From the IMG/VR virus record IMGVR_UViG_3300043774_000178, positions 32,001 to 96,000 of that record: a stretch of DNA of 64,000 nt; one strand, written 5' to 3'. Below are positions 6,001-58,556 of the stretch, in pieces. The notes under the pieces are model-generated. The model was not told where the DNA came from. It was given only the letters and a program-made list of their open reading frames with translations, and did not search any database. Made by a program: the position numbers and the translations under genes. Source of the stretch: a virus. The stretch's first letter is position 1. The number at the start of each line of letters is the position of its first letter.

Positions 6001-6455
6001 AAGAAATTCAAGCTAGAAGAGAAGAACTAAAACAAGGTGCACCATCTGAAGTAACTCCAGTTACTATTGAAAAAGGATCTGAATATGCGGTAGAAGTTAC
6101 TATCTTTGAAACAAGAAATCCTAATAATATTTTTGCAAAGCCTGGTGATGTTGTAAGAGTTGTAAGCTCTACTGAAAATAAAGTAGTAGTAAAGAACAGT
6201 AATAACAAACAAAAGACTTTAAGCTTTGAAGAGTTCAATAAAATGCTTATATTAAAAGAGAACGTAATGCAACCTAGTACTGATACAAGTGAAACTTTAA
6301 CTCCAGAAGAATCCTCTATAGTAGACGAATCTAATTCTGCAGCAATGGATCTATTAGATAGTCCAACTAGAATGGCAGAATTACAAAAAGAAGCTGAAGA
6401 TTCTAAAATAGAAGATCTGGAAAAAGATTTCTTAGACAGTATTGATGAATGTTAG
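3..6455 (+). CDS. Giant virion/ejection protein 1 (5'-truncated) with PD-(D/E)XK nuclease-like domain
   Basis: Frame is open from nt 3, so the gene starts before the window. Motifs GNYVDRAIRDFF, AGEIDLIMVD..VFIVDVKTG and QQTTY at ~4780-5200. First of three tandem giant genes typical of crAss-like phages. Confidence 0.8.
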   Translation, partial: AGIISEAIIEEAGLGLLTAATGGGAAPAWMASLANKGNQFKNLFRTLSKADNVVDASNIYRKSLKAMDNVDDTRRIWSAQKADKALNSGIGRFFNPVENTANAIMKGIKNEDNLTGLARAYTTGYNTVGGLYRDVRSINMALAEARLEGGMTQNDVYKELYNRYYEKTGRAPSDAEQELMIKQSKDAATTSMMWNTGLIYLSNKVVLDNIVGAGKGITGWTRGKIDDILDLKTGKVIKETEEVVLKSGKKFQKPKYKWEENTFKNKLLNIKKNPVSGTLSFAGTYLKGNIMEAGQEVAQEVIGDATKKYYVSTFKNEHLRTQQYATGLAKSAFDDLFSTSRGWETAASGFFMGMFAGPLNKSVELMSVGYDKYFNPEQYNEYKKVRDEYGKRIVNTLSSVDMNEFFNSRIWNYGVQGSMSDLRLADSEKLQRDAQDQAFITQMNTVLENDMMNHFIENLESYKGLTAEEFEEAFPNVPQGEGAKYIAKLDETIDRAKNLEKKYNFYKERFPDPVSAKDLEGLAPESKEYQNAQLLNEAWKVARYNGIFFSETFENVTKRMSGILDSVASQKLLKNASASDITVLFDPKLLANQADILRDEIDMMSKTEGTRPKDLLERKQKLEALDNYDKAVNTYLSFTMTKEAIAEKFINRAKMQGKELSDEELDSLVESEMSKRSESDQVEAAKQLEIAYKDYLKTLAGQTGDYVFDEQIDDSFIKLIDYYKLSDEAKLMNTYANLLMNPAGYLEQVEKNQEWMSELYNNRKEYYQEMVQEAIKAKESNDLLNFLASRNIYVSLDDFQRFLETGILPDEFYNDTNNTVIKRSNPEYIELARAFIKFNELNKQVIKAQSADETLRETLKNLDEKMMDEIEALEKSEVRNELGPIPTKKKGIGISDVMANVEDGQYADLIYMEGKDETQITVYRDGDVLKYNNKEGEEVNPKLKTKFISGVKYEIKLEPDAAEVEAIKEKYRAIKDLKVEEALAEKEKEQFEEDKFVEITPSTPIEEFPADLYNELYLMFEDYIDKTNIEVQDDEFTDRLANFIRTNSLAAEVIAEYNKNKKLEIATAPTGEVIVPTITTRDGKEVSVDELPEEEVRSYLNSFLSELKVLETKDKLEPQEQNRLYQIKRVADDLQKYVDSLDKTQFTEAQLATIEVLNQIKLKNEQLVRTPNGYIIDDTLHKRVTTEIQKLVSKGYQYTDIGKIRIAFNSTLGKTGLTVDSVDAFINKLREESPKGFSEYTYTELDQELKALAGQPTTAGTQADIERKSNESVKDFIERLFSNNYFSEVDGKQIFSLTQGRWGVVVNINGVQVPFYQSTSGTDTKVTGQWYPFFGDLGNWVIKGNSDDSNIGYGFKAIQNVQKFLNDNIKETDAIALSGIISTDVNQNKESLRSLDESKIKGNEKISLNKEATAKRLADVAGYSLEEGRKTKSDLELFELASKKIFAELAALEPKATENQVDRKAAVIEAGLGRELENIVRDRLRNEGVTQAERNKLTLTQEQSISLATEADYKTLLENNKRKLKEEEAKFEASQKEDFDPTTGEFETGENVAFYQNKIKSIEGIINIKPTAKPQFLTKAELRELVENLVQEKTYEDARIAGNYVDRAIRDFFAGRTPEFNEKYITKEAYDSLFGDSSAVDASGNRTSIGYLELAKQRLEEQGLYLYSEGLVLNDVDAVVAGEIDLIMVDRQGRVFIVDVKTGDATKWGNFNDPKNQYSKKEDYELQQTTYSNLLFNMTGLNSLVSLMPIEITKDKETGKILTASAPKAKDLLKPESFRIPLSKETKSIGAVKTITDTQRAEIKGFGITDSQIELMTQREIDLLLNPELRSEVMIEDLKKKYKNADTVLGKTIQERVDTIVPRKDREASIIQTGRPVSEETVKKLKSLGFTDEMIGIMSAEDIEEAKKIRRKADAKTLIDKYAELLPKEGSEGDQAPPKNSTNANQNVEESAELRQFREGLRGHLAKMDLIALDKYEAETVANLIKNKQITAEFAIIASEEIQARREELKQGAPSEVTPVTIEKGSEYAVEVTIFETRNPNNIFAKPGDVVRVVSSTENKVVVKNSNNKQKTLSFEEFNKMLILKENVMQPSTDTSETLTPEESSIVDESNSAAMDLLDSPTRMAELQKEAEDSKIEDLEKDFLDSIDEC

Positions 6456-6459
6456 TAAT

Positions 6460-9400
6460 ATGAAAATTACCTGTGCACTTTCACCCACTCAATTAGAGAA
6501 GTTATATAAACTTGTTTATAAAAATATAATCACTGCAGTAGAAAAAGGGGATACTACATTTGACCCTAATGTCTATATGCAGGATCTGTTTACTAAGATG
6601 GCTGATAATTCCTCAGAGGATAATGCCGCCAAGTTTATTCAACAGGTACCCATACTTTTAGTATCAATACAAGCTACTCCTAAAGTATTTAGAAGTGGTA
6701 TAAAGTTTCCTGAAGGCACAGACTTAAGAGAATTAGATTCTAGATATACTAATTCTGAAACAGGTATAGGTGAAATACTTAAAGACTTTGGATCATCAAA
6801 CATTAATGATCTTAGATCAAAGGTTCAAATGAATGCAAGGACTCAGTTTGATCCTACAGAAAGAGATCTTGAAGAACAAGAGATTCCAAGTGCACCAAGA
6901 CTAACATCATTCAACCCTAATACAGGAACCCTAATTGAGTTTCAACCTGTAAAGCCTGGTAAGAAAGCAGAAGATGTTCTGTTCCAAGAATCTATAAATG
7001 AAAATAGAACTACTATTTATACTACTATAAATAGATTAAGAGATGCTGTTGATCCTACTACACAACTAGTAAAAGATTTAGTATATCAAAATAGAACACT
7101 TAGATTAAAAGCAGTTCCTCTTGAAACTATTGACAGAGATTTACTTGATCAGACTACTTTAAAAGCAATTGAAAGATCACAAGTACTAAGAGCTGATAAA
7201 AAAACTCAAGCTGGTGTAGTTCAAACAGATAGTATGGTAGCATTAGTTGTTATTGATGCTGAAACAGGAGATTTTGTAAAGTTTGATGAGACCGGTGACA
7301 TAACAGATAATGTTGAAGGTAAGATAGTATATCAGTTCTTAAGACCTATAGCAAAGGATTCTAATGGAAAATATGTTGTTACTGATTTCTTTGCAAAAGA
7401 AAGAAGAATAGCTAAGCCTGACCTAGTTGCAACTAAGACATACTTTCCTGAAATGGGTATATCTTATGAGGAGTATCTTAAGCAAGTAGATAAAGAACAG
7501 CAAGAAGACTTTAAAAAAATAGAAGAACTTAGAAAAAAAGTTTTATCTGGAGAAGATATAGAACTTTCTATAATAAGTGTTACTGATGGTATTGCTCCTT
7601 CAGAAACTGGTATAAGACTTACTATACAAAAAATTAACGATAACTATTATGGTGATCTTAATTGGGAATCTATATTTAAAACAACAAGGATATTAAACAA
7701 GAAAGAAAAGGGATTAGGAGAAGGTGTTGCTGTTGTAGAAATAAAAGGTAAAGAATACGCAATAGATAGAAAAGACATACCTAATGATAAGGCAGAAGAA
7801 ATATCTTATGTATTAACAAATCCTAATATTCCTTTTGAAACAAGACTATCATTTTATCATCAGTTCTTTGGAGATAAGATATCACCTTCAGCTGTAAGTC
7901 ATAAGATAACTTATGATGTAGATACTAAAGAATTTAAGATCTTCATATATAATGAAACTTATGCTCAAAATAAAAACAGAAAAGAACCTAGAGGAATTGA
8001 TATATCGGATGCAGCATTAAAGAAAGCATCACCTGAGTTTTTAGAAAAATTAAGATATAATATAGAACAAAGATTAAAAAAAGGTAAGTCATCTGTTTCA
8101 GGAACAATGTATGCTGCTAAGATGAGTTATGTATCTGATTTATTTAAAGGTAATAAAGCATTCTTTACTTATGATATAAACACTCAGGAGTTTACACCAA
8201 CTAACTATACTAAGTTTATTACATCTCTTAACCCAGAAATTACTACAGCTCTGGAAGGAACTGAGAACTTTAATGCATCTATAGTATTTAACATGCCCTC
8301 ATCTATTGAGAGTAAGATTGAACAGACTAATAAAAATTTAAAAGCAGAAAAAGAAGATCCTGAATTAAGTGTAAAAGAAAACAAAGATGATTTAGTATCT
8401 TATCTTAAGACTGTTGGTGATGCTGAAACAGCATTAGTAGATACTCTTAATATTACAGAAAGTAAAAGTGGTAGCACTCTAACTTTTACATCTCCTTCTA
8501 ATGGATCTGAAATAACTGTAGGACTAGATCCAAAAGCTATTGATGAAAATTTAATACCTGAAAAAGAAGGTATAATTACATTAGGATTAGCTACAGTTGA
8601 AACAGATGACATATATGTAGAAGATGCAATAGAGGTTTTTCACAATGGTCAATTAATTGGATACGTTAGAGAAACTAGTACTCCTCAAGAAAGAGTAGAA
8701 AGAGAAAAATTTTACAAAGACAAAAAGAAAGAAATTCTAGCTCAGAGATTAGCAGAGCAAAATCAAATTCTTAACCCTACAAATGTTACTCAACCATCTG
8801 ATACAAAACAGAAGCCAGGTAAGAAAACAAAAATAGATCCTAGTAAATTCTCAGGTTTAAATAGAAGTAACTTACTAGATAATGGTGTCACTCAAGAGCA
8901 GATTACTGCTGCAGAGAAATGGTGGTCTTCACATCCACTAAATAAAGTTATTGGATTAGAGCACCTTACTAACATTGTTAATTCAAATGCTTTTGCAAGA
9001 TTTACTTCTTCTGCGCAGAAACTAACTGACCCTTCTTTACTAGGTAAAATAACTTTTTATAAAGGTGGTAGTTTAGTAGATATCTATCATGAAGCATGGC
9101 ATGCATTCTCTCAATTATATTTAACTAGAGATGAGAAGATAAAACTCTATGAGGAAGTAAGAAGAGCTACTCCAAAACTTGCTGATGCAAGCCAACGAGA
9201 AATAGAAGAAGAACTTGCAGAAGACTTTAGAACTTATGCTAAAAATCAAAAGGTAAAGAAAGACTCTCCTGTAAGAAACTCTTTGTTTAGAAAAATACTA
9301 AACTTTATAAGATCCTTTTTTGGAAAGAATCCTGCTAGTCAAGAAGTATCTAATAATCTATCTGATAATACAGTAGTAAAAGAACTGTATGATAAACTAT

Positions 9401-12400
9401 TTTTTGCTAATCAAAATCCTAGTTTATTAAATGACTATACTCCTCTTATTGACAATGTCATGTTTGACTCGCTAAATAGAGGTCCTCAGAGAGTAGATAA
9501 TAGAAAAGAACAAGCTTTGAGTAAAGCAGATGCAGATAAAGCAGTAGAAAGCTTAGATTCTATATTATCTGACTATATAGATGAGATCCATGACGTAAGA
9601 AAAAGTCAAGGAGATGCAAACTTAAAGTCTGGTAGTATTGCATTACTTTCAAGTCAAGTTGGTGAAGATGGTATAACTAATAAAGAAAGACTTTATGATT
9701 ATGCTAAATCAGAGTTTCAAGACAAACTCGAATATTGGCAAGATCAGCTAGGTGAAATATCTGGAGCTAACTTTAACAAGTTAAATTCTGTAGAAGAAAT
9801 AGAAAGAAATGCTATAGGTATAATTAGAAGTGAAAAAGGAAAACACAAATACTTTTTCTTAACTTCTCAAGTAGAAAATTTTGATAACCTAATACCTGAG
9901 TTAAAACGAGGTCAGAGAGTAAAAGGACAAGCATACTATAATATAAATGTAGTATCAGACTTCTATTCACATAAAAATATAAAAGTAGGTGACAGACCAA
10001 TAACTATTGCACTTGTATCAGATGTAAGAGATGCTGAGATACAATATGATAACTACATAAAAGGTGGAAATCAGGACGTTACTATTTTTGAGCAAAAAAA
10101 TCAACCGAACTTAGTACCTCTAACTCCTGAGCAACAAGCTATACAAAACAAAGTAAGATTGCTTGAGAAAGTTTTAGAGAACTGGGGTGATGCAAATACT
10201 GGTTTTGTAAAATATCATATGGAGAATAGTGACTTTGATATTATCAAAGAAACATTTGTTGAAGTAGAATATGATGAGGCTGGTGTAGAAGTAGATGAAA
10301 CAAGTCCTGAAGATGGTAAAGGTTCTGATGATACCTTCAATGATAAGACAGGTAAAGTATCATTAGAGAAACTAGCAAACAAAGAAACTGTATACCTACT
10401 AAAAAGTCTTTTTAAGATTGATAGAAAGACTGGTGAAACAATAGAAGATTCACTTGGATTTAAACAACGTGCAGACTATAGAGAAGTATGGAATGCAGTT
10501 GTAAGAGCAATGGGTGGAGAAAAGAATAGAGTTAAAGCTTATGAAAAACTAAAAAAAGCAGTATCTCATACTCCTGAATTAAAACAACTTATAGAGAAGA
10601 AGTTTCCTATGCCAGAGGGTATTACAAACCCATATGAGTTTAACATAAGCTCTTCATTCTGGCAAACATTCTCAAGACCAAGAGTACCTTATTTGCAGCT
10701 TACTGCATATATGAATGTAGAAAAAGTTTATGATCCTATATCAGGTTCAGAAACTTCAAAAGTTAGATCAGTAAACACTGAAGTTACTACAGCTTCTGTT
10801 GAGGTAAGTTCTACATTAAGAAAGTTTGAGACTAAATTTAAGACTGATCTTAATAATCCATATGTTACAAGAACAGCAAGTAATGAAACTCTATTAAAAG
10901 TACAGGAGGTAGCTAAAGCTTTTGCAAATAAGAAAACAGCAGATCTTAATGTTGCTGACTCATTTAATTTTGCAAGAGCTATAGGTTTCTATGTTGATGA
11001 TTTACTATCTATAAAGAAAGAACTTAAAGATAATCCGGGTCAATATGGGTTGCAATATATCTATGATGTTGTAAAAGGGTTTGCTGCAATAGAAGCTAAA
11101 GGTGCAGAAGCTACAGTAGAACAATCTAAGAAGTTATTAGAATTCAAAAGAAATCCTGTACAAGTATTATCTAGTGAGATTCCTAAAGGTATACTAGGAG
11201 ATAAGTCTGTTAACATGAGTACTAATGTTGATAGATTAGCTAAGCTACAAATTAACCTTGGTGTAGATTCTTCTAACTATTCAGTGTTTAGTGCTGATAG
11301 AAATAAGGTATTTGAGTTTATCAATGACCACTCTATAAGTAGAATGGTTGATGCTATAAATGATGTAAATAAGTTAACTGAGCTTTGGACAGAGTCAGAG
11401 TATAAGTACATGAGCTACTTGGATTGGAACAAAAATACATTTACTCAAAAGTCACAAATACTTAAAAGTCTATTTGATTTTACTGATCCAGAATTTGAGA
11501 AAAGAGAAGGTAAGTCACTCAAGTTATTTAATGACTCTGGTACTCAAGCTGTTATAAATGAAAATGGTAGGACTGAGTTTTTTACAGGAACTAATACTAC
11601 TTCACAAGATATCAATGGTAAGTTCATTCAAGAACTACACATGATGTTAAAAGGTGGTGTCCAAGAGTTTATTAGACACGCATCAAAGAAAACAGCACAA
11701 GGTGTAAAGGTAGATGGTGGAATAATAGGTGGTATTGAAAAAGGTATAGACCCTAATCTATATGTAGATATATCTATGTTCAAACCTGATGGTGCAGGTG
11801 TAAGCTATGCATTCAATCAAATACTATTACCATATATTACTGTAGAGTTTGATAGGATACAAAAGTTTAAAGCTAACAAAGAGAAGTATCTTAACTTCCT
11901 CGGATATAATAATAGAGTTGGTGGTACTAAAGAAAATCCTATTTATGCAGGAGAAGTATTCACAGCTTTTGATAATGTTATTACTGATAGTGTAAAACAA
12001 AAGTTGTATAATCTACCACTAGGTACAGATCTTAATGCGTACTTAAGAAGTAATCCTTCACTGAGATTAGAACTACAAAGAGATGTTGAACAGTACTTTA
12101 AAGAACAGACTCTTGATAATATCAGCATGCTTGAAGAGAACAAGTTTATAGACAGCTCTCTCTTTGATAAGTTAGGTATGCCTGCCCCTGTTAATGAAAC
12201 TCGTGAACAAAAACTAACAAGAGAAAAAGAGGCTGAAGCTTTGCTTGTAAAAGCATATACATACAACTCCTGGATACATAACTTTGAGACAATACATCTT
12301 TTCTATGGTGATATGGCTCAGTACAATCACATAAAAGAAGAGTTGCATAAGAGAAATACAGGATCTACTTCAGGTGGTATTAAGTTCTTATCAGATAAGC

Positions 12401-15400
12401 CTGCTCAAGACTTTATCAATAATAGTTTTAATCTTAAAACTTACGGTGCAAAGCTTGCTAAAGATTTAAAAGATGATAACTATAACTCTTTCTTCTTTGA
12501 CGGTACTTTAAACTCAGCAGTAATTCAGGATATAGAAAGAGAATCCGTTTACTTAACTGAGATAGAAGAAGCATTAAGAGAAGACTATACTGAGAGTCTT
12601 AAAAAGTTTAATTATACTGACAAGCAAGTTAAAGAAATAGTAGATAAGAGAATTAAGGAAGAGATAAAAGCATACAAGAAAATGACTGAAGGTGATGGTG
12701 CTGGATACATTACTCTTGATGCATATAGAACTCTTAAGAAATTATCTAATGAGTGGACTGATGATGTTCAGGAAAAGATTTATCAAGACATCATTAATGG
12801 AAGACCGGTTAAAGCAAAAGATATAAAAGAATTCTTCCCTGTATACAAACTTCAGTATTTTGGAAATATAGATACAGGAAAAGATAATCTTCCTGTTACA
12901 GCAATGCATAAGTTTGCACTTACTCCTTTGATACCAAGTGTATTTAAAGGTACAGAGTTAGAGAAGATGCATAAAGAAATGTTGAGAAACAATGTTCAGT
13001 ATGTAACATTCCAATCTGGTTCTAAAGTATCTGGTGTAACAAGCAATGGTAAAGTTGATGATATCTATGCAGACAGTGAGAGAAAGACTCTAAAAGATAA
13101 AATGGAGTTCACTCCTAACAAAATCTATTTAGAATATCTTAAAGATGTAACTAAAGTACCTAATAAGTTTAAAGAAACAATTACATATCCTACTCAGCTT
13201 AGAGGACTTCTTTTAGATGGTATCTATAATGAAGGAAACATAATTGATAAAGTATTTACAGAACCTGCAAATCAGTATAAGAATGCAGTTGATGGTTATT
13301 CAGAGTTGCTTAAGATTGAGTTGCTCAATGAAATAGGATATGAGTACGATGAGAAAACAGGTAAGTACACAGGGAATCTTCAGGACTTCCTTGAAATGGT
13401 TCAGAAAGAGTTAGAGAAAAGAGATCTTCCTGAACAACTTGTTAAGTTCGTAGGAGTAAATTTGGACAAGAGTCTAAGAACAGACTTATCTCTACACTTA
13501 GAAGCAGATACAATAGAAAAGATTCTTTTATCTGTAGTTCAGAAAAGACTTATTAAGCAGAAAGTAAAAGGAGAAGCTTTTGTACAGATACCTAGCTCTA
13601 TGACTAATGGGGGTTGGGGAAGTAAATTTAAGCTAGGTACAGTAGAGGACAGAAAGAAATTTATGGGTTCCAATACTCTTCCTTTCTATAAAAGAAATAA
13701 AGGAGGAAAGACATCTGCTATGAAAGTAGCTGTGGCTTTGCAAGGTGACTTTGAAAATTTACTTAAGCTTAAATATAATGATGAGGTAATAGGTGATATC
13801 AATACTCTAAATGAGGCAATTAAGGATGATGCTTGGTTAGAAAAACATAGAGAAGCTATAACACTTGCTGGAGCACGTATTCCTATTCAGAACCTTAACT
13901 CAATGGAATTTGCAGAGGTCTATCACTTCTTAGATCCTACTGCAGGTAACATGATTATAGTACCTACTGAGATTGTAGCTAAAGCAGGATCTGACTTTGA
14001 CGTTGATAAAATCTTCTTTAGTTTACCACACATTGATAAGAAAGGTAGATTTATTAAGACTAAGCTGACTAACCAAGAGTTAGAAGCTAAAATAAAAGCT
14101 GCAAAGAAACCTAAAGAAAAAGCTGCAGTTAAAGCTTTGATTAAAGAACAGAAACAAGCTTTAGAAAATAACCTCATAAGTACAACAAGAGGTATCCTAG
14201 AAGTAGATAAAAACTATTCAAACCTTGTAAGACCTAATGCTACATATCTAATGCAGGATATGGTAGAGTCCTTAGAAGATTATGTAGTTGACTACAGTAG
14301 GTATAATACTATGCACGATGAGGGTATAAGAATGTTTACTGATAATGACGGTAAACAGAAAAGAGTTATTAGTCCAACAAGAACACTTGAAGCTAGATAT
14401 AATTTACAGAAGCATCAGGTAAACATGGTAGGTAAAGATACTCTTGGTATTGTAGCTCTTGAAAACAAACAGCATCCTATTTGGAAATCTATAATGGCTA
14501 AGATGCCTCTTTTTTACAAAGAAGCAGTTTGGAGTAATGGATTAGGTAAGTATGTTGAAATACCTGAGATAGACAAGTTTATGTATCTCAGAATGAATCA
14601 TAATAAGATAGGTGATAATATCTCTATGTCATCCATGTATTCAAAAGATGGAGACAGAATATCAGATCTTATATCTCATATGATGAATGGTCTTTTAGAT
14701 GTAGAAAAAGATCCTTGGGTATTCTTTATTCAAGCTAACTTAGAACAGATACCTGTAATTAACTATTTACTTCAAGCAGGTGTACCTAAAAAAGAAGCAA
14801 TATACTTTGCTGCTCAACCTGCAGTAAGAGAGTATGCTAAAGTACAGAGAAACCTTAAGAGTACATTCTCTGCATTCAATAGTGCAACACCTATCAATGA
14901 AGCAATGATAGCAGCACAAGCTGCAAAAATTGTATTTGAAAATAATTTTGGTAATAGCTCTTTAGGTGAACAAGCTAGAGATGAGCGTCTTGGTCAAGTA
15001 TTTGACAAGTTTAAAAACAAAGATGTTTATATAACTTATGGTGTAAAAGGTACAAGTGAAGTTTATGAGGGTCCTCTTAAAGGTTTTGAAGACTTTTATT
15101 TTACATATAATGTAGCTAATAAAGTTCCAATTTTTATTAAAGGTATCAATGAAGCAAAAACAGGAAGAATATTATTTCAGCCTTCAGTAAATCCTGTAGC
15201 ATCAAGTAACATTTACTATAGTTCAAAAATTGTAAATGGTGCAAAAAACTTTACAGAAGAAGAGTTATATGATAATATTAAGAATAACAGATTTGATCTA
15301 GGATCATTCTTACATTTCTTAGAAATTGAGCAACAAATAAAAGGTATCCAAGCTGTTAAAAGACAAGCTAATCCAGATACTAAACTTGTAAAAACTGCAT

Positions 15401-18400
15401 ATCAAATTAACAAGCAAGAACTTGCATATGAGAATGTAGTTGATTCTTCTAAAGTAGATAATGATTTACCAGTAGCTATTAGGGAAAGATCTATCTTAAG
15501 CTCATTCTATGCTAGTAAACTAACAAAAGATTTAGTAACTCCTGTATTTCCTTTAAGATTAAATAATGAGATAAATGACTTTATCACAAATAGATTAAAT
15601 TTTGGAAGTCAGAGAATCAAGAAAAGATTTGGTGCAGGAGTAGATGGTCAAGAGAAGTTTACATCTAGCTTTAACAATGGTGTAGTTAATTATATATTCC
15701 AGAACTATCTTTCTAACTATATAGATAATAGTGGTAAAGCTACAGTTCTCCCAACTGTTTATAGGGAGATGACAGTAATCAGTGCTCCATTTAAAGAAGG
15801 AGACAATGAGTACTTTATACATGTAGACAAAGCAAATAAAACTATTAACGTAGACCTTGAGGAGTTAAAAGATATCTATGATAATGGTTTATACTTAAGA
15901 AGCAATAGAGAAGAAGGTAGCTACAATGATATAGGTTTATATAGCTTTATTGATGCTAACAATCCTTTTGATACATTTGAGTCCTTTGTACGATACACTA
16001 TTGAAGAAGCACACCTTAGAAGCATATATACTCCTGAGAGTCTTAAGGGTAATAAAACTTATGAAAGATATGAGAAAATAGTTAAGAGAGGTCTTAAAGA
16101 TGCAAAGCAATCAGAAATAGATGCTAAAGCATTTAATGCATATATAGCACAGAGAGCATTACTAAATGTTTACAATCCTAATGCTATAATGAAAACAGAT
16201 CTCTTCTCATACTCAGATCAAATCATGAGTGTAATAGAAGACTATCAAGGAACATCTCTCATGGATACGTATCCTATACTAAATCAATTTGAGATAGCAC
16301 AGTTCCCAGCAAAAAGAGGAGTTAAACTTATTACACTAAAAGATAAGAGTTTAGCAGAAGGTGATGTAGCATTTGGATACTATCAACAACTAAGACAACT
16401 TGGTGATATAAATATCAGAAAAGTAAATGACCCAGTAGAGAACAAAAGAATCAGTGATCTATTTAAGGTCTTTACTAATATGATGATATATCAACATGGT
16501 ATAGGATATAGTCCATATGGATTCCCTAAAGTACTAGACCCGGACCCATTTGTAGAAGTAATGAGAAATGCCAGTGCTAGATTTATGCAGGGTAATCTAA
16601 ACAATGATACTTTATCTAGTATATATGAAACAGTAGTATCTGATAGTCCATTACAAAAAGACTTTAGAAACTATGTAAAAACTGTTGAAGAGTTTAATAA
16701 AGGTGTTAAAGAAATAGATAACAGTTCTGAAAACCCAGAAGAGATAGAAGGAGAAAGTGAAGGTACATCTACTCAACCAACAGCCCAACCTGCTACAGGA
16801 GGAACAATTAGTTCCACTATATATGAACTTAATCCTAATATTACAGAAAAAGAAATTAAGAAGATATATAACAACTATGTTGCTCTAATGAATCTTAGGA
16901 GAGAAGGTAAACAGATAAGTTATAAAACTTTTAAAAGTCTTCTGGACTCTTACCAAGTATATAAATATAAAGACACTTATATATTTGGACAGTATGATAA
17001 TAAGAATGCGGTGTTTATTACAAGGATGAATAGTTCTCCAACTAGTAAAGAATTGCTAGCAGAAGCTATACCAAATCTTGTAAGTAAGGGATTAGACTTT
17101 ATGTCTTTTGTACCTAAAGATTATGCAGAAAAATTAGTAAGAAGTGGATATACATCTTCTACTGACTCATATTCTTATAATTTCAAGGGAGAAAAGATGC
17201 AAAAGTTTGCTGTAGCATCCAATCCTTTAATCTTCCAAAAAGTATTTAACAAGAAGTTTGATGAAGTAACTGCAGAAGAAATAGAAGATTATGCTGACTC
17301 AGTTGAGTTAAAGTATAAACCGGTTGAAATAAATGCTGATCTTATACAACAAGCAGGTAATGATCTTTCTAAAGTCTTAGAAACTTATCTTGGACAATTT
17401 GGAATACGTGTTGATGACATAAATGTTATAAAGGATAAACTAAAAGTTGATGAATTAGGTTTTGCAGATATACTATCTAAAGTTGCATATGTAAAAGATA
17501 AAAAAGATTTACCACCAATAGCTGGAGAATTCATTGCTTACATGATGCAGTATAATCCTTTAGTTCAGAGTATTGTAAATGATCTGATTCAGACTAATGC
17601 TATACTTATACCTAAAGACAGTTATACATTTAACGAGCAAGGGAATAAAGTTTATAACTATAAGTCTCTTGATAAAACAGAGTTCTTTAAATACATAGGT
17701 AAGTTAATCTCAGAAGATCTACAAAACAAACTTGAGGGTAACTATAATAAGTCTCTAGTACAGAAAATCAAAGACTTGATAAAAACATTCTTTGACTACA
17801 TTAATAGAACTCATATTGATAGGATAAATACTAATGTAGGTATCATATCAAATAACATCCTTCAACAGAACAAGAAGTTGATCACTTCATCTTTATATAA
17901 ACCTGGAGCATTTGGGCAACCAACTCAACAGGTAGATATTGAGTTTGCATTAAAACAAGATCAATTTGGAGCATCTATTATATACTCTTTAGCAAATGAA
18001 GGATTCATACTTACAGGAAGTACTGCACTATCAGAACAAGGTACAATCCTAAGACCTGATGAGAATCCTCTCCATGATATTGATTGGGTAAGTCCATTTA
18101 ATAGAAAGGAAACTGAAGAGAAGTTCTTAAAAGTATATCCAGATGCTGTTAAAGTAAGAGACATATATGGGGAAGGTTATATAACTGATAGCTATCTTAT
18201 TGCACCTGAAGGACACTCAATAGCTAATTATAAAGCTGATAACTTTAACGGTAAAATAATTATGAATTCCTATGATGTACTAGATAGTAGTGGTGCTGTA
18301 GTAGGTACATACCGACTACAGAAACAAGAGAATAATAATCAAATGGAAGAAGTTGTTACAGGTGTAGAAGGTAAAGTTATTGACTTCTTTAGTTATGAAA

Positions 18401-18672
18401 ACTATAATGACTTTAACAGAGGAAAAGCTTTTGAGTATACTTCAAAACAAGGTACAGTAATTAAGCTTGCAAACTGGAAAGACATCTTTGGTGCCAAGTT
18501 AGCATGGGCTAGATATAAGGACATATGGGATTACAATAGATTTATTCCAAATGAAAATATAGAAAAGATAACTGGTAACCAGCCTGGTGCAAATTTAAGT
18601 TCTTATGAAAATAAAAATGCTCCTGATGGACTTCCTCCAATTGATAGAACATCCCCTTCATGTGGAGGGTAA
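6460..18672 (+). CDS. Virion-packaged two-barrel RNA polymerase polyprotein with zincin (HEAWH) domain and C-terminal nucleotidyltransferase
   Basis: Catalytic GSDFDVDK (13987-14010) preceded by RIPIQ and EGDGAGYI, as in crAss-like virion RNAPs (phi14:2 gp66 type). HEAWH at 9088-9102 with downstream EEELAEDF. ATG at 6460 preferred over the TTG at 6442, which overlaps the previous gene. Confidence 0.9.
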   Translation: MKITCALSPTQLEKLYKLVYKNIITAVEKGDTTFDPNVYMQDLFTKMADNSSEDNAAKFIQQVPILLVSIQATPKVFRSGIKFPEGTDLRELDSRYTNSETGIGEILKDFGSSNINDLRSKVQMNARTQFDPTERDLEEQEIPSAPRLTSFNPNTGTLIEFQPVKPGKKAEDVLFQESINENRTTIYTTINRLRDAVDPTTQLVKDLVYQNRTLRLKAVPLETIDRDLLDQTTLKAIERSQVLRADKKTQAGVVQTDSMVALVVIDAETGDFVKFDETGDITDNVEGKIVYQFLRPIAKDSNGKYVVTDFFAKERRIAKPDLVATKTYFPEMGISYEEYLKQVDKEQQEDFKKIEELRKKVLSGEDIELSIISVTDGIAPSETGIRLTIQKINDNYYGDLNWESIFKTTRILNKKEKGLGEGVAVVEIKGKEYAIDRKDIPNDKAEEISYVLTNPNIPFETRLSFYHQFFGDKISPSAVSHKITYDVDTKEFKIFIYNETYAQNKNRKEPRGIDISDAALKKASPEFLEKLRYNIEQRLKKGKSSVSGTMYAAKMSYVSDLFKGNKAFFTYDINTQEFTPTNYTKFITSLNPEITTALEGTENFNASIVFNMPSSIESKIEQTNKNLKAEKEDPELSVKENKDDLVSYLKTVGDAETALVDTLNITESKSGSTLTFTSPSNGSEITVGLDPKAIDENLIPEKEGIITLGLATVETDDIYVEDAIEVFHNGQLIGYVRETSTPQERVEREKFYKDKKKEILAQRLAEQNQILNPTNVTQPSDTKQKPGKKTKIDPSKFSGLNRSNLLDNGVTQEQITAAEKWWSSHPLNKVIGLEHLTNIVNSNAFARFTSSAQKLTDPSLLGKITFYKGGSLVDIYHEAWHAFSQLYLTRDEKIKLYEEVRRATPKLADASQREIEEELAEDFRTYAKNQKVKKDSPVRNSLFRKILNFIRSFFGKNPASQEVSNNLSDNTVVKELYDKLFFANQNPSLLNDYTPLIDNVMFDSLNRGPQRVDNRKEQALSKADADKAVESLDSILSDYIDEIHDVRKSQGDANLKSGSIALLSSQVGEDGITNKERLYDYAKSEFQDKLEYWQDQLGEISGANFNKLNSVEEIERNAIGIIRSEKGKHKYFFLTSQVENFDNLIPELKRGQRVKGQAYYNINVVSDFYSHKNIKVGDRPITIALVSDVRDAEIQYDNYIKGGNQDVTIFEQKNQPNLVPLTPEQQAIQNKVRLLEKVLENWGDANTGFVKYHMENSDFDIIKETFVEVEYDEAGVEVDETSPEDGKGSDDTFNDKTGKVSLEKLANKETVYLLKSLFKIDRKTGETIEDSLGFKQRADYREVWNAVVRAMGGEKNRVKAYEKLKKAVSHTPELKQLIEKKFPMPEGITNPYEFNISSSFWQTFSRPRVPYLQLTAYMNVEKVYDPISGSETSKVRSVNTEVTTASVEVSSTLRKFETKFKTDLNNPYVTRTASNETLLKVQEVAKAFANKKTADLNVADSFNFARAIGFYVDDLLSIKKELKDNPGQYGLQYIYDVVKGFAAIEAKGAEATVEQSKKLLEFKRNPVQVLSSEIPKGILGDKSVNMSTNVDRLAKLQINLGVDSSNYSVFSADRNKVFEFINDHSISRMVDAINDVNKLTELWTESEYKYMSYLDWNKNTFTQKSQILKSLFDFTDPEFEKREGKSLKLFNDSGTQAVINENGRTEFFTGTNTTSQDINGKFIQELHMMLKGGVQEFIRHASKKTAQGVKVDGGIIGGIEKGIDPNLYVDISMFKPDGAGVSYAFNQILLPYITVEFDRIQKFKANKEKYLNFLGYNNRVGGTKENPIYAGEVFTAFDNVITDSVKQKLYNLPLGTDLNAYLRSNPSLRLELQRDVEQYFKEQTLDNISMLEENKFIDSSLFDKLGMPAPVNETREQKLTREKEAEALLVKAYTYNSWIHNFETIHLFYGDMAQYNHIKEELHKRNTGSTSGGIKFLSDKPAQDFINNSFNLKTYGAKLAKDLKDDNYNSFFFDGTLNSAVIQDIERESVYLTEIEEALREDYTESLKKFNYTDKQVKEIVDKRIKEEIKAYKKMTEGDGAGYITLDAYRTLKKLSNEWTDDVQEKIYQDIINGRPVKAKDIKEFFPVYKLQYFGNIDTGKDNLPVTAMHKFALTPLIPSVFKGTELEKMHKEMLRNNVQYVTFQSGSKVSGVTSNGKVDDIYADSERKTLKDKMEFTPNKIYLEYLKDVTKVPNKFKETITYPTQLRGLLLDGIYNEGNIIDKVFTEPANQYKNAVDGYSELLKIELLNEIGYEYDEKTGKYTGNLQDFLEMVQKELEKRDLPEQLVKFVGVNLDKSLRTDLSLHLEADTIEKILLSVVQKRLIKQKVKGEAFVQIPSSMTNGGWGSKFKLGTVEDRKKFMGSNTLPFYKRNKGGKTSAMKVAVALQGDFENLLKLKYNDEVIGDINTLNEAIKDDAWLEKHREAITLAGARIPIQNLNSMEFAEVYHFLDPTAGNMIIVPTEIVAKAGSDFDVDKIFFSLPHIDKKGRFIKTKLTNQELEAKIKAAKKPKEKAAVKALIKEQKQALENNLISTTRGILEVDKNYSNLVRPNATYLMQDMVESLEDYVVDYSRYNTMHDEGIRMFTDNDGKQKRVISPTRTLEARYNLQKHQVNMVGKDTLGIVALENKQHPIWKSIMAKMPLFYKEAVWSNGLGKYVEIPEIDKFMYLRMNHNKIGDNISMSSMYSKDGDRISDLISHMMNGLLDVEKDPWVFFIQANLEQIPVINYLLQAGVPKKEAIYFAAQPAVREYAKVQRNLKSTFSAFNSATPINEAMIAAQAAKIVFENNFGNSSLGEQARDERLGQVFDKFKNKDVYITYGVKGTSEVYEGPLKGFEDFYFTYNVANKVPIFIKGINEAKTGRILFQPSVNPVASSNIYYSSKIVNGAKNFTEEELYDNIKNNRFDLGSFLHFLEIEQQIKGIQAVKRQANPDTKLVKTAYQINKQELAYENVVDSSKVDNDLPVAIRERSILSSFYASKLTKDLVTPVFPLRLNNEINDFITNRLNFGSQRIKKRFGAGVDGQEKFTSSFNNGVVNYIFQNYLSNYIDNSGKATVLPTVYREMTVISAPFKEGDNEYFIHVDKANKTINVDLEELKDIYDNGLYLRSNREEGSYNDIGLYSFIDANNPFDTFESFVRYTIEEAHLRSIYTPESLKGNKTYERYEKIVKRGLKDAKQSEIDAKAFNAYIAQRALLNVYNPNAIMKTDLFSYSDQIMSVIEDYQGTSLMDTYPILNQFEIAQFPAKRGVKLITLKDKSLAEGDVAFGYYQQLRQLGDINIRKVNDPVENKRISDLFKVFTNMMIYQHGIGYSPYGFPKVLDPDPFVEVMRNASARFMQGNLNNDTLSSIYETVVSDSPLQKDFRNYVKTVEEFNKGVKEIDNSSENPEEIEGESEGTSTQPTAQPATGGTISSTIYELNPNITEKEIKKIYNNYVALMNLRREGKQISYKTFKSLLDSYQVYKYKDTYIFGQYDNKNAVFITRMNSSPTSKELLAEAIPNLVSKGLDFMSFVPKDYAEKLVRSGYTSSTDSYSYNFKGEKMQKFAVASNPLIFQKVFNKKFDEVTAEEIEDYADSVELKYKPVEINADLIQQAGNDLSKVLETYLGQFGIRVDDINVIKDKLKVDELGFADILSKVAYVKDKKDLPPIAGEFIAYMMQYNPLVQSIVNDLIQTNAILIPKDSYTFNEQGNKVYNYKSLDKTEFFKYIGKLISEDLQNKLEGNYNKSLVQKIKDLIKTFFDYINRTHIDRINTNVGIISNNILQQNKKLITSSLYKPGAFGQPTQQVDIEFALKQDQFGASIIYSLANEGFILTGSTALSEQGTILRPDENPLHDIDWVSPFNRKETEEKFLKVYPDAVKVRDIYGEGYITDSYLIAPEGHSIANYKADNFNGKIIMNSYDVLDSSGAVVGTYRLQKQENNNQMEEVVTGVEGKVIDFFSYENYNDFNRGKAFEYTSKQGTVIKLANWKDIFGAKLAWARYKDIWDYNRFIPNENIEKITGNQPGANLSSYENKNAPDGLPPIDRTSPSCGG

Positions 18673-53664: not shown

Positions 53665-53778
53665 AAGTTTGTTTTTAAGGTGAATATATAGCTAAGCAGG
53701 AGAATTAATACTCTCCTGCTATAAAACAATATAGTTCTAACAAGAACCATAGAATGATGGATATCTTGTATCCTTTAT

Positions 53779-53958: not shown

Positions 53959-53959
53959 A

Positions 53960-54598: not shown

Positions 54599-54613
54599 AA
54601 TTATAAATTTAAG

Positions 54614-54880
54614 TTAGTAATCAAGTTTCTGTATTTCTTTTTGGATAAATTCTAGTCTTGCCTCTAGATTTCCATATTCATTAAATGCTAGTAATTCTGC
54701 ATCACTAAGTTGTGCTTTATATTCTTCAACTGGTTTATTCATATAGTTACCTAAATGAATATATTCTTCTTGACTAATAAGATTTGATTCTAACAATCCT
54801 CTTAACCAGCCCATTATACCGCCTCTAAACTTATCTTTGTTTTGCACCATAAGTTTTAATAGTTCTTTGTCTGCTCTCAT
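54614..54880 (-). CDS. Hypothetical protein
   Basis: 88-aa ORF. Confidence 0.7.
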   Translation of the reverse strand: MRADKELLKLMVQNKDKFRGGIMGWLRGLLESNLISQEEYIHLGNYMNKPVEEYKAQLSDAELLAFNEYGNLEARLEFIQKEIQKLDY

Positions 54881-54920
54881 AATATTATTAATTAAGTTTC
54901 TATAAGTTATGTTAAGTAAA

Positions 54921-55620
54921 ACTACAAGTCAAACTCTGCTTTACAGTATGAGAGTTTATGCCTGAAACCTTGTAGTCTACTCAACAACCAGAAGTGTTAG
55001 CCCGTTGCTGTCCCTAGGGAGTGCTGGCATGTGGTTACTGGTTAAATACCCCTCTGCACTCAGTTGTAATAGTATTGGTTGTAGCTCAATTTAAAAGTAA
55101 ACATCATTCAAGATAGCGTACTGTGAACACTTCTATATATCTATAGAGCTATCACTATCTTATAGTTTAAATTAAATCATAACTAAGAGTTCTTATACTA
55201 CTCTTAAATCAACTATTACAACTGCTCACCCTTGGGAAGTGAGAATGGTGCATTAGTACCTTGCATACTCTTACAAGGATTAGTTATTTCTGTCTTCCAG
55301 TGGTACTTCTACCTGCAATTTTAACTACTCCAATTGCATAAATTACTTTAAGTATAAAGCTTTCGCATTTCACTTATGCCTTTCTTACAAAGATGATTAG
55401 TCTTCTCAACCTTTACAGAGGTTTAGTTAGGAGTTACATACAGCTAACAAGTAATCATCTTGTTTCTTATAATCTTACTGTAATAAGATTAAATCACTGA
55501 CATAAATAGTACTCTCACAAGGTTGCAACCCTTGAGGATGTAGTCATTCCATTAAGAGCCCACAGTAATAGACTGACGAGATCTACTAGTAGCATTTCCT
55601 TACCTGCTTGGATGAGAGTA
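54921..55620 (-). ncRNA. Candidate large structured ncRNA or ncRNA cluster
   Basis: ORF-free in the track; many nested helices, e.g. 54921/54969, 55061-73/55212-24, 55390-99/55452-61, 55510-17/55613-20. Strand inferred from flanking genes. Confidence 0.6.
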
Positions 55621-55653
55621 TAAGCAGTTTTATATCATGCTTAGGATATGTCT

Positions 55654-55899
55654 TTAGATATTATCAATACATATTAATGAATCTAAGTCAGCGTATTTAC
55701 CTGTGTATACTTTGCCCGACTGTGATTCTACTTTGATACTATCTTCAGAGACTTCAAGGAAATACTCTGTCTTAATATGCTTAGAAGTTTTGGGAGAATG
55801 ATGCTCTACAGCATTATTGTGTCCTAATATACATCCTACAAAGAATGTAATAATAGCATAAATAGTGAATGCGAATGCAAGTTTACCATTGTTAATCAT
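55654..55899 (-). CDS. Membrane-anchored hypothetical protein
   Basis: Start moved to MINNGKLAF; the upstream extension is low-complexity DNA. Confidence 0.65.
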   Translation of the reverse strand: MINNGKLAFAFTIYAIITFFVGCILGHNNAVEHHSPKTSKHIKTEYFLEVSEDSIKVESQSGKVYTGKYADLDSLICIDNI

Positions 55900-56019
55900 A
55901 TAATTGAGATTTGAGTTACTGAAATTAATTCCCCGGAGAATATGTGGCTCTAATAGATAATAATAATAGTATAGATAGAGATAGAGATAGTAAGTAAGTA
56001 TGTATAAAGATACTTGTAT

Positions 56020-56211
56020 ATACTGACCAATAGCCATATTCTTAAATTGTATGTGGAGTATGAGTAGGGATTATTCATACTGACCAAGGTTGTTGTAGAT
56101 ATGTGGTGGTTGATTATCAACTAGTTAGCTCTTAATGAATCTTAATTAATCCATAGTAACTTCAATAACATACTAGTTTATCACTAGTATATACTGACCA
56201 TGTATTGACCA
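56020..56211. repeat. ATACTGACCA direct repeats (3 exact + 1 variant)
   Basis: Copies at 56020, 56077 and 56191; TATTGACCA at 56203. Confidence 0.75.
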
Positions 56212-56329
56212 TACCTTTACAACCCCACTCTGTTTTGAGCTGTTTAACTTAAGCCGCAGACGAAGTCTGCTTAATAGCAAAAACAATAACCCTACACTGT
56301 ATATCAGTATAGGGTCATTGTGGATTGGG

Positions 56330-56725
56330 TTAAATCTCAGCCTCAGCTTGTTCCTCAATCACAAAGCCAAACATGGATGCAGTAGTAACTACAGCACTTG
56401 CAAGATGGCTTAGGGTCCAAAGTATGATGAGCTCACCATTCTCATCGCGCTTAGCATCCTGTGTAGTAGGATCCCACACAGTACTAGCTTTAGCACTGTA
56501 CTTACGTCCTACAACAAACTCTGCATCAGCATGGTTATAGGTACCTGCATAAACCTGTGCTGTAGTAGCAATGCCATCTACATCAATGGTTGCGAGTTTA
56601 TACTCAGTACCATTAGAGTTGGTGAATGTTTGTGCACTAAGTGGTGCAACAAGCTTAGCACTTTTACGCGCTTCATAGCTAATTGTTCCATTAGCTAAGT
56701 CTACTCTTTTCATTTTCATAATCAT
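56330..56725 (-). CDS. Beta-rich early protein (possible OB fold)
   Basis: 131-aa ORF downstream of the motif at 56766. Confidence 0.75.
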   Translation of the reverse strand: MIMKMKRVDLANGTISYEARKSAKLVAPLSAQTFTNSNGTEYKLATIDVDGIATTAQVYAGTYNHADAEFVVGRKYSAKASTVWDPTTQDAKRDENGELIILWTLSHLASAVVTTASMFGFVIEEQAEAEI

Positions 56726-56818
56726 AAAAATTAGAAATTAAACAATCATTTATCCAACTTAGTTATGAGCTGTTTAATAAAAAAGCCGCATGCGTAGCAT
56801 GCTACAAGTGTGGTTAGC

Positions 56819-56916
56819 AATTCCCACTTGGGTATATATTATTACCCATTATGTGAATACAAATTCCCACTTGCTATTAAAACCTTCCCGTGTGAAGAGT
56901 TTGAAATTCCCACTTG
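56819..56916. repeat. Three 12-bp repeats AATTCCCACTTG with exact 43-bp period
   Basis: Copies at 56819, 56862 and 56905 separated by two different 31-bp spacers. Confidence 0.85.
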
Positions 56917-56933
56917 AGTAGAAAAAAAGGGGA

Positions 56934-57200
56934 TTATTCATCCCCTATTAATCTCATGTCTGTGGTTTGAGCTAAATCATTAAGATATTCAAAGCTCTGT
57001 TTCATACTCATAAACAGATTTGCTAATGTCCAATCACATGTTGTAGGATTTCCTGGTCCTTTATAGTAAGTACCATACTTCTTTGTTTTTGGATCATAAA
57101 AGTAGAACCCCATGATATCTATATTTCTACTCATGAATAGTTCTTTCATTTTCCAACGGAGATCCTTTAGCATTTCTAATTCTATTTCTTTCTTTGTCAT
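56934..57200 (-). CDS. Early hypothetical protein
   Basis: 88 aa; own motif and terminal hairpin (56922-56946). Confidence 0.75.
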   Translation of the reverse strand: MTKKEIELEMLKDLRWKMKELFMSRNIDIMGFYFYDPKTKKYGTYYKGPGNPTTCDWTLANLFMSMKQSFEYLNDLAQTTDMRLIGDE

Positions 57201-57260
57201 GATATATAGTTTTAGTTAATAATTGTGAGCTGTTTAAAGAGGTAAATAATAAAGGGGATA

Positions 57261-57482
57261 TTACTCCCCTTTATTAAGATGTTGTTTTAACATCTTAATT
57301 AAATGCTCAGCTTGTTCATTGCTTAATTTAATTATAGCAATTTCAGCTGAATCAAATGACATAAAAAGTTCTAACTTTTCTTTACCATTTGATTGTACAG
57401 AAATACATACATCTTGCCCATCTAATTCATTTAAGCTTGATGATGTCTTTGCATTATTAATAATGTTGTTTAGTATATTCAT
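57261..57482 (-). CDS. Early hypothetical protein
   Basis: 73 aa; 12-bp inverted repeat 57247-57276 spans the stop. Confidence 0.75.
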   Translation of the reverse strand: MNILNNIINNAKTSSSLNELDGQDVCISVQSNGKEKLELFMSFDSAEIAIIKLSNEQAEHLIKMLKQHLNKGE

Positions 57483-57558
57483 AACAATAAATTTTAATAC
57501 TAGTTATGAGCTGTTTATATTTAAAAAAAGAAGAGGAGCCTAAGCCCCTCCACCTTAA

Positions 57559-57777
57559 TCAGATGTCATCCTCCATGTTGATGGTAGGACGTAACTGTGC
57601 TATGTCTGCATCTTGATACAGAGAGTCACGGTACTTAACAAGTTCACGTAATGATAAGCAGTCCATAGCCTCAATGAGTGCTTGCTCTTGAGCCTTGTGT
57701 GGACGTAGGAATAGTATCCCTGCAATCTCCATTACTACATCATTTTTGTTTTCTTTTGCTTTAGTTAAATTAAACAT
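57559..57777 (-). CDS. Early hypothetical protein
   Basis: 72 aa; terminator at ~57523-57552. Confidence 0.75.
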   Translation of the reverse strand: MFNLTKAKENKNDVVMEIAGILFLRPHKAQEQALIEAMDCLSLRELVKYRDSLYQDADIAQLRPTINMEDDI

Positions 57778-57840
57778 GATAAATAAATTTTAAGGTTCAT
57801 ATTAGTTTTGAGCTGTTTATTCTGGTAAGTAAAAAGGGGA

Positions 57841-58035
57841 TTATATTTTCCCCTCTTCACTCAATTCTATGATAGTCATCAGTGCAGCAAAGATGGATAT
57901 TAATCCCCCCACTACTACGTATCCTGATTCACTAGCAATAGTACTGAATCCACACTTAGGACATATTAAGAATATGAACCCAGCACCTGCAAGGTAATAC
58001 CCGCAGAATGTTACTAAAAATAAAAATGTTTTCAT
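57841..58035 (-). CDS. Early two-TM membrane protein with CPKC
   Basis: 64 aa; hairpin 57831-57854 spans the stop. Confidence 0.75.
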   Translation of the reverse strand: MKTFLFLVTFCGYYLAGAGFIFLICPKCGFSTIASESGYVVVGGLISIFAALMTIIELSEEGKI

Positions 58036-58084
58036 AGCTTATAATTTTAAGTATAGTATATGAGCTGTTTAAAATAAATGGGGA

Positions 58085-58174
58085 TTAATATCCAATCCCC
58101 ATTGCAAAGCAATACAACTCTAGTAAGAACCAGAGTATGATTGCAATTTTGTAACCTCCATCTAGATACTTCAT
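58085..58174 (-). CDS. Early single-TM peptide (29 aa, not in ORF track)
   Basis: MKYLDGGYKIAIILWFLLELYCFAMGIGY; ATGA-coupled; stop inside hairpin 58077-58103. Confidence 0.55.
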   Translation of the reverse strand: MKYLDGGYKIAIILWFLLELYCFAMGIGY

Positions 58175-58326
58175 GATTCCTGTATAAATAGTGAAGAAAC
58201 ACCTGCAACTCCTGCAAGTGCAAATAGTACTAGCCACCACTGGCTTTCACCATCAATCAATGCACCGATTGAGATAGTCATTACACCAGCTAAATAAATC
58301 TGAACCAATCTTAATACTTTTTTCAT
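58171..58326 (-). CDS. Early two-TM peptide (51 aa, not in ORF track)
   Basis: MKKVLRLVQIYLAGV...SLFIQES; 31 nt downstream of the motif at 58358. Confidence 0.7.
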   Translation of the reverse strand: MKKVLRLVQIYLAGVMTISIGALIDGESQWWLVLFALAGVAGVSSLFIQES

Positions 58327-58391
58327 GATACTTGTTTTATAGTTTAGATATAGTACATGAGCTGTTTATATTAAAAAGAAAGAAAAGAGGA

Positions 58392-58556
58392 TTACTCCTC
58401 TTTCTTTCTACACACGTTGAATATAACGTACTCTCCGGCAGTATGAATCTGATACTTCTTAAGAGTTTTAGCAGTCAACCATTGGTTAAGCTTTTGTTGC
58501 ATCTGAGTTAACGCTTTGGAATCAGATGCAGGAATTGAAAATATATCTACTCGCAT
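58392..58556 (-). CDS. Early hypothetical protein (54 aa, not in ORF track)
   Basis: MRVDIFSIPA...CRKKEE; motif at 58585 and hairpin 58373-58408. Confidence 0.7.
   Translation of the reverse strand: MRVDIFSIPASDSKALTQMQQKLNQWLTAKTLKKYQIHTAGEYVIFNVCRKKEE

Follow-up and report, generated by a model that had tools for sequence, protein, structure and literature searches.

Do two small DNA hairpins beside a repeated early motif help a phage-borne RNA polymerase to start transcription? Few known phages are as abundant as the Crassvirales, and to our knowledge no promoter has been defined for a virion RNA polymerase (RNAP) of this order; phi14:2 is the only crAss-like phage we know of in which that enzyme has been studied. 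A literature search found no paper on hairpin signals in crAss-like phages. The hairpins at issue lie in a 64,000-nt stretch (the window) comprising bases 32001-96000 of the 114,090-bp IMG/VR virus record IMGVR_UViG_3300043774_000178. A sequence-only reading of the window had proposed that they are structure-based promoter elements for a two-barrel virion RNAP unrelated to that of phage N4.

A virion RNAP candidate in a distant crAss-like phage

Three giant ORFs occupy the + strand of the window, and a 4076-aa ORF (6442..18672, +) carries DFDVD at residue 2518. When the 800 aa around DFDVD were searched by tblastn, only Crassvirales records matched, at 21-26% identity, which points to a distant crAss-like phage with a candidate crAss-type virion RNAP. 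A search of the whole genome with PF00940 (T7-like RNAP) gave no match, control genomes being equally silent, and a sequence search of the RNAP core against the PDB gave none either. Megablast of 55000-59500 against phage records found no close cultured relative. Within 52000-60000, Rfam returned nothing relevant and no tRNA was found, and PHROGs and Pfam gave nothing significant for the small proteins of the array region described next.

Single-gene cassettes share a linear motif

Genes run on the minus strand from ~58.7 kb down to 52.5 kb, and the first 2.5 kb of this arm is an array of single-gene cassettes. Read in the gene sense, each cassette consists of TAAACAGCTCA, 2 bases, ACTA and ~30 nt before the ATG of a small gene, which is followed by a GC-rich hairpin and its T-run. 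On the + strand the motif reads TGAGCTGTTTA and has seven exact copies, all on that strand; two degenerate copies at 58585 and 58728, in the same orientation, bring the total to nine cassettes. Copy 1 (56236..56246, +) is the last of the array and heads a noncoding stretch, and copy 2 (56766..56776, +) heads a gene for a protein with a predicted OB fold. The other five exact copies (57226, 57507, 57809, 58061 and 58358; 57226..58368, +) all lack the GNA hairpin described below, and each follows, in the gene sense, a GC-rich terminator and its T-run. The Bacteroidota -7 box (TAnnTTTG) is absent from the gene strand of the cassette array, where only ~1.5 occurrences would be expected anyway.

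Two cassettes carry a GNA hairpin on the template strand

Hairpin 1 (56256..56270, +) has a 6-bp stem and a GAA triloop closed by a C-G pair, laid out as GCAGAC at 56256-56261, GAA at 56262-56264 and GTCTGC at 56265-56270. Hairpin 2 (56788..56802, +) has the same stem length and closure around a GTA triloop, with GCATGC at 56788-56793, GTA at 56794-56796 and GCATGC at 56797-56802. Both follow a 5' flank AAGCC (56251..56255 and 56783..56787, +), for which the family consensus is AAG plus 1-3 nt. The complete elements, at 56251-56270 and 56783-56802, read exactly as the sequence-only reading had claimed, and its description of their setting is borne out as well. The two stems differ at two positions, and both differences are compensatory (G-C to T-A and A-T to G-C). 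The motif TGAGCTGTTTA ends at 56246 and 56776, that is, 4 and 6 nt before AAGCC. Because the small genes of the array lie on the minus strand, the + strand that carries the hairpins is the template strand. In the gene sense, the order at both hairpins is an ordinary terminator, then the hairpin, then the motif.

A chance origin of the hairpins was considered and rejected. The 20-nt pattern common to both occurs twice against an expectation of 0.01, and throughout the 114,090-bp genome these two are the only perfect C-GNA-G hairpins with stems of at least 5 bp, for which Markov shuffles predict 0.47 occurrences (0.15 at 6 bp or more). Computed with the ViennaRNA DNA parameters, hairpins 1 and 2 reach -4.9 and -5.5 kcal/mol on the + strand and -5.3 and -5.9 kcal/mol on the minus strand. 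The GNA strand thus gains no extra stability in this model, and the claim of extra stability rests on the literature, in which mini-hairpin DNA of the form d(GC-GNA-GC) is stable with only two to three pairs through a sheared G-A pair (PMC13037366).

The hairpin structure is conserved on one strand in deep lineages

Searching relatives for the hairpin had been named as a check of the proposal, and it shows the module to be conserved, with the same layout and strand, in deep lineages. Through the neighbouring 216-aa gene we found 80 further loci in the same orientation, while querying with the conserved 81 aa of the next gene returned only 4. In five relatives the RNAP core has no more than 39-51% identity, and these are therefore deep lineages; the 216-aa marker is 88-98% identical. 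One relative, locus L014, encodes a 74% identical version of the 131-aa protein from between the hairpins; both hairpins and their GGCTT flank are unchanged there and their surroundings have diverged.

Across lineages the module reads, on the + strand, as the cassette motif, 0-8 nt, AAG plus 1-3 nt, and a stem of 2-7 bp closed as C-GNA-G. Stem variants include GAC/GTC, TGC/GCA, GCC/GGC, TGTCC/GGACA, GATGC/GCATC, TGTTGC/GCAACA and GAAACAC/GTGTTTC. The hairpin always lies within 0-8 nt of a copy of the cassette motif, though the motif itself differs by lineage, and always beyond the T-run of the upstream terminator. Strand bias is strict: in 818 kb, all 20 perfect C-GNA-G hairpins of at least 5 bp lie on the template strand and 0 on the opposite one, while stems of at least 2 bp with an AAGC-type flank divide 34 to 1 in favour of the template strand and stems of at least 3 bp with an AAG flank 45 to 4.

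To these counts, 22 elements of different lineages add evidence of covariation when aligned on their loops. In this alignment 70% of cells pair, versus 48% in shuffles, and the covariation score of 0.519 (0.154 in shuffles) was reached by 0 of 500 shuffles; sliding the 3' partner by 1-3 columns lowers pairing to at most 60% and the score to at most 0.22. The 22 elements had been preselected for at least two inner pairs, so that only the third and outer pairs provide an unbiased test, and the third pair forms in 20 of the 22. The alignment indicates that selection acts on the structure of the hairpin and not on the sequence of its stem.

Inspection of 35 distinct elements reveals all four bases in the middle of the loop (GAA in 15, GTA in 11, GCA in 6 and GGA in 3). 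All 35 retain the closing C-G pair and the loop's G..A, positions at which the search itself required C, G, A and G. With C-G closure, a GNA loop of any middle base and stems down to 2 bp, the elements have the sequence hallmarks of DNA-level d(C-GNA-G) mini-hairpins, and we classify them as such.

We considered phi14:2 as a test case for the module and set it aside: its first 12 kb hold no C-GNA-G hairpin of at least 4 bp, and its first 61 kb no intergenic one of at least 3 bp on the template strand. Crassvirales as a whole therefore do not share the module.

The cassette motif differs from lineage to lineage, each having a version of its own; AAAGCTGTATA, AAAGAAGTA, TATAAAGTTGTT and AAAGAGGTA are + strand examples. 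A skeleton common to the lineages (window 56236-58738 and loci L015-L094) comprises AGT, two A/T positions, R-A-G, two variable positions, G-T and an A/T-rich end. Lineages whose RNAP cores are 39-51% identical differ in the motif at a few core positions; judging from these sequences, promoter and polymerase seem to have drifted together in specificity between lineages, as in T7-type phages.

Hairpins mark the last two cassettes of the array

The sequence-only reading had counted it as a caveat that only two of nine motif copies have a hairpin. The count is correct and is no weakness, for the placement follows a conserved positional rule. In 13 loci (the window and L019, L057, L062, L070, L083, L037, L043, L052, L015, L025, L059 and L036), the hairpins accompany the two motif copies that are most distant from the divergent intergenic region, and two in nine is therefore a conserved feature. 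Hairpin-bearing cassettes head units of two kinds, a small gene and a noncoding stretch. In most lineages, although not in all, the hairpins bracket the same gene. Their number and spacing vary at the margins, as five of the eight cassettes have a hairpin in L091 and the two hairpins of L064 are 143 nt apart. Restriction to the last two cassettes suggests a separate class of timing or strength.

An intergenic element of another kind lies at the opposite end of the array. At 58800-58860, in the divergent intergenic region and beside the first, degenerate motif copy, there is a GC-rich element with G-runs around GCGCGG, which is kept in L014, L059, L067, L077, L085 and L064.

The hairpins do not behave as terminators

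A further caveat of the sequence-only reading was that one hairpin has a T-run and could be a terminator. The observation stands, in that hairpin 2 is followed in the minus sense by GGC and a T-run and is listed by the terminator scan. A related possibility is that the element works in the RNA of the upstream transcript as a second intrinsic terminator, an insulator or a 3'-end stabiliser; both window hairpins would fold as RNA (-6.8 and -6.7 kcal/mol), and they fill the slot in which other cassettes have terminators. That slot, however, is already served. The terminator scan finds an intrinsic terminator of the 131-aa gene (56283..56321, -) directly upstream of hairpin 1 in the gene sense, and a terminator of an 88-aa gene (56928..56946, -) upstream of hairpin 2 and the repeat spacer before it, and in the family at large a good terminator likewise precedes each element.

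The sequences of the elements themselves do not suit termination either. Hairpin 1 has no T-run, the T-run of hairpin 2 begins 3 nt past the stem, and L014 replaces that T-run while keeping the hairpin and GGCTT identical. Among the 35 distinct family stems, 24 are of 4 bp or less and 13 give no RNA fold at all, and the fixed loop type and closing pair have no known meaning in RNA. Given short stems, preceding terminators and the lost T-run, the terminator reading fails, and any RNA-level role is highly improbable and close to refuted.

An OB-fold gene and two repeat sets surround the hairpins

The gene between the hairpins (131 aa; 56330..56725, -) encodes a protein whose AF2 model shows an OB fold followed by a disordered acidic C-terminal tail, an SSB-like build. 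Folded from the single sequence, the protein gave a pLDDT of only 36; the model used here was built with an alignment and has an OB barrel (pLDDT 83.7) and a low-confidence acidic tail. The best Foldseek rows for it are almost all SSBs and are weak (E ~0.02), VIA-align gives Z of 6-7.9 to IF1/eIF1A, PriB, SSB and RPA, and a sequence search of the 131-aa profile against the PDB gave no match. For this predicted structure the VIA-align matches show a fold, not a function. The gene in the same slot is homologous in L091, L064, L019 and L052 (hhalign probability 96.5%); the small gene there in L062 and L015 is not detectably related.

Residues ~20-83 of the 131-aa protein also match 4-9 stretches in each of seven large metagenome proteins of 553-2410 aa (P0007, P0011-P0014, P0016 and P0018).

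Hairpin 1 and motif 1 head a noncoding stretch that runs from 56235 down to ~55900. In it lies the iteron-like sequence ATACTGACCA, in three exact copies and one variant (56020..56212, +); the exact copies occur nowhere else in the window, and the GGTCA pairs of this region are kept in L014 and L083. An AT-rich low-complexity tract with a GC content of 0.24-0.28 (55950..56010) comes after the iterons, and the layout of 55950-56212 appears origin-like. A second set, three exact repeats of the 12-nt AATTCCCACTTG with a 43-bp period (56819..56916, +), sits beside hairpin 2 in the gene-free 125-nt spacer between that hairpin and the terminator at 56946-56928.

Relatives differ in this second set. 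L015 has the AATTCCCACTTG repeat and two copies of another, TTCTTGGATTCCTA, and L014 has the TTCTTGGATTCCTA repeat alone; both sequences are probably protein-binding sites.

These surroundings raise the possibility that the hairpins are single-strand initiation signals of a replication origin at 55.9-57.0 kb, where a primase or a primer transcript would start + strand synthesis. Mini-hairpin DNA has three known uses, and two of these, the G4/St-1/alpha3 origins and RSF1010 ssiA, are in priming (PMC13037366). The iterons and AT-rich tract after hairpin 1 and the repeats beside hairpin 2 would suit an origin, and relatives carry repeats of their own in these slots. The bracketed gene encodes, on its model, an OB-fold protein similar to SSB and PriB, and a Toprim_2 (primase) ORF (36156-37163) and a DnaB_C ORF (39189-40202) lie downstream on the same strand. 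Yet an origin signal would have no need of the cassette motif that adjoins every hairpin, and L091 has five such hairpin-motif units; both hairpins of the window lie on one strand, unlike ssiA and ssiB, and the conserved flank lies 5' of the hairpin, the geometry of N4 and not of G4.

An origin signal of this kind fits the surroundings nearly as well as a promoter does, and the iterons and AT-rich tract equally well. Origins of T7 and T4 are fired by a promoter, and the two roles would overlap if the origin here were fired by a promoter or by transcription. Taken for itself, we regard the origin role as unlikely; among the alternatives to a promoter it is the strongest.

Somewhat less probable again is an operator: a phage regulator such as the OB-fold protein would bind the hairpin, or its inverted repeat as a duplex, and tune two cassettes while taking no part in initiation. 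Such a role would agree with the frequent autoregulation of SSB-type proteins, with the position of the OB-fold gene between the hairpins in many lineages, and with the restriction of the element to a subset of cassettes. A duplex operator, however, would keep the sequence of its half-sites, whereas here the stems vary freely and the pairing alone is kept. A stem that can shrink to 2 bp also speaks against a duplex operator, and a symmetric duplex site leaves the strict orientation of the GNA loop unexplained.

A composite early promoter is the favoured reading

What set the elements apart in the comparison above, a selected, strand-specific structure of the N4-like d(C-GNA-G) type, upholds that part of the structure-based promoter claim. 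As the hairpin is always joined to the linear motif, it is better described as an accessory module of a composite signal than as a free-standing promoter of the N4 type, and since seven of nine cassettes lack it, the hairpin cannot be the core signal. We therefore favour, as a tentative candidate whose chance we put a little short of even, a composite early promoter in which the hairpin and its flank would form the upstream module.

Under this proposal the two halves of the promoter would be the hairpin with its 5' flank (AAG plus 1-3 nt) upstream and the lineage-specific linear motif that is present at all nine cassettes. Stems of 2-3 bp cannot extrude from duplex DNA alone, and something else must therefore unwind the strand first; once the template (+) strand is unwound, the d(C-GNA-G) mini-hairpin would fold on it. 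The folded hairpin would resist both SSB coating and melting, and so could mark, or hold open, a junction of single- and double-stranded DNA beside the motif. There the injected crAss-type two-barrel RNAP would start leftward RNA synthesis. Placement of the module at the SSB-like OB-fold gene and at the noncoding stretch leading to the replication genes would make these two units a separate class. We infer the role in initiation, the enzyme that reads the hairpin and the position of the RNA start alike.

Several observations bear on this composite promoter. Hairpins at five of eight cassettes in L091 fit a part of a promoter better than a single origin, and the conserved bases 5' of a template-strand GNA hairpin match the geometry of the N4 promoter (PMC4496689). 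The spacing between hairpin and motif, on the other hand, ranges over 0-8 nt, and such variation speaks against a single rigid protein contact. The lack of the hairpin on the template strand in the first 61 kb of phi14:2 also counts against this reading. At all known sites of mini-hairpin DNA, that is, the N4 early promoters, G4-type origins and RSF1010 ssiA, RNA synthesis begins on a single-stranded template (PMC13037366). The gp66 of phi14:2 transcribes single-stranded and not double-stranded DNA, and no common early promoter motif was found for it (bioRxiv 10.1101/2020.03.07.982082). Together these two properties lead to the promoter reading.

Comparison with known hairpin signals

The virion RNAP of N4 reads a template-strand hairpin with a G-R-A loop and requires A or G at -11; on the template, transcription starts 5' of the hairpin, and the hairpin stays intact in the presence of host SSB (PMC4496689). 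The present elements resemble the N4 promoters P1-P3, which are read by the injected gp50, in having a template-strand hairpin with a 3-nt GNA loop closed by C-G, few copies per genome, a position in the early region and conserved template bases 5' of the hairpin. The two window hairpins share further with N4 a stem within its range of 5-7 bp (both 6). In N4 the polymerase is carried in the virion, and here a candidate virion RNAP is known from its ORF; SSB is involved there as the host protein, and here an SSB-like gene lies between the hairpins.

The differences are equally clear. The N4 enzyme is T7-like and the candidate here is of the crAss-type two-barrel kind. Stems are 5-7 bp in N4 and 2-7 bp in the present family. 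N4 needs a central purine in the loop, whereas about half of the present elements have a pyrimidine, and the window pair already departs from purine centres, with GAA in hairpin 1 and GTA in hairpin 2. The hairpin here is also always coupled to a linear, lineage-specific motif and missing from most cassettes. With pyrimidine-centred loops and a candidate polymerase of another kind, the hairpin module is not a member of the N4 promoter family, and as the polymerases are unrelated, the analogy would have to be one of convergence. That the two-barrel RNAP of a crAss-like clade has arrived, independently of N4, at an SSB-free GNA landmark combined with a fast-evolving motif and an OB-fold co-factor is conceivable, and we consider this wider scheme rather doubtful.

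Priming sites provide the second comparison. The G4/St-1/alpha3 origins and RSF1010 ssiA have the same C-GNA-G core, act in single-stranded DNA and mark a start of RNA synthesis, the role proposed here. Iterons and an AT-rich tract lie nearby in the RSF1010 oriV, as they do near the hairpin here. Those sites, however, belong to single-stranded DNA phages and a plasmid, whereas the present elements stand beside a promoter-like motif in a double-stranded DNA phage; and in contrast to ssiA and ssiB, both copies are on one strand, with up to five copies in the relative L091. RepB' of RSF1010 reads the 5' tail together with the first base pair of the hairpin (PMC13037366).

Two other systems are similar in arrangement. 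The PeSL cassettes of T4-type phages are small early genes, each with a repeated promoter and a stem-loop, whose gene content is swapped between relatives; their stem-loops are RNA terminators read by the host RNAP. An array of single small early genes, each with a repeated promoter or candidate promoter and a stem-loop, is common to both, although the PeSL stem-loops are not strand-specific GNA mini-hairpins. In conjugative plasmids, the leading region carries Frpo, a long stem-loop that forms in the incoming single-stranded DNA and mimics a duplex sigma-70 promoter. Such Frpo/ssi structures in single-stranded DNA drive early expression of ssb, which recalls the SSB-like gene here, while Frpo has no GNA mini-hairpin.

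Consequences and neighbouring genes

Comparison within the clade defines a candidate signal compactly, as a linear motif with a GNA mini-hairpin and its AAG flank. Natural variants, including stems of 2-7 bp, four loop bases and cassettes with and without a hairpin, amount to a ready mutant series for work in vitro. If the composite promoter is real, N4 would gain an independent counterpart, the second case in which transcription initiation depends on a hairpin, and it would become clear how a polymerase that prefers single-stranded DNA can locate its start when the injected genome is a duplex. A priming signal, should the element prove to be one instead, would locate the origin of this phage group.

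The neighbourhood of the hairpins has further features of its own. A 127-aa ORF (55654-56037) begins with 46 codons that are a Tyr/Leu low-complexity reading of the AT-rich tract; relatives keep just its last ~80 aa, from the Met at 55899, and the ORF as called is probably too long. Downstream of the 81-aa gene, and inside the unit headed by hairpin 1, ~730 nt (54915-55645) hold no ORF, and Rfam finds nothing there. The 216-aa protein used as a marker (58911-59561) corresponds to phrog_3704, labelled ferredoxin or PurM in cyanophage records, and tblastn finds only distant homologues among auxiliary metabolic genes (AMGs), in cyanophages and a few others. Its 88-98% identity spans lineages whose RNAPs are ~45% identical, so that its sequence suggests an auxiliary gene that is either conserved to an unusual degree or moving horizontally.
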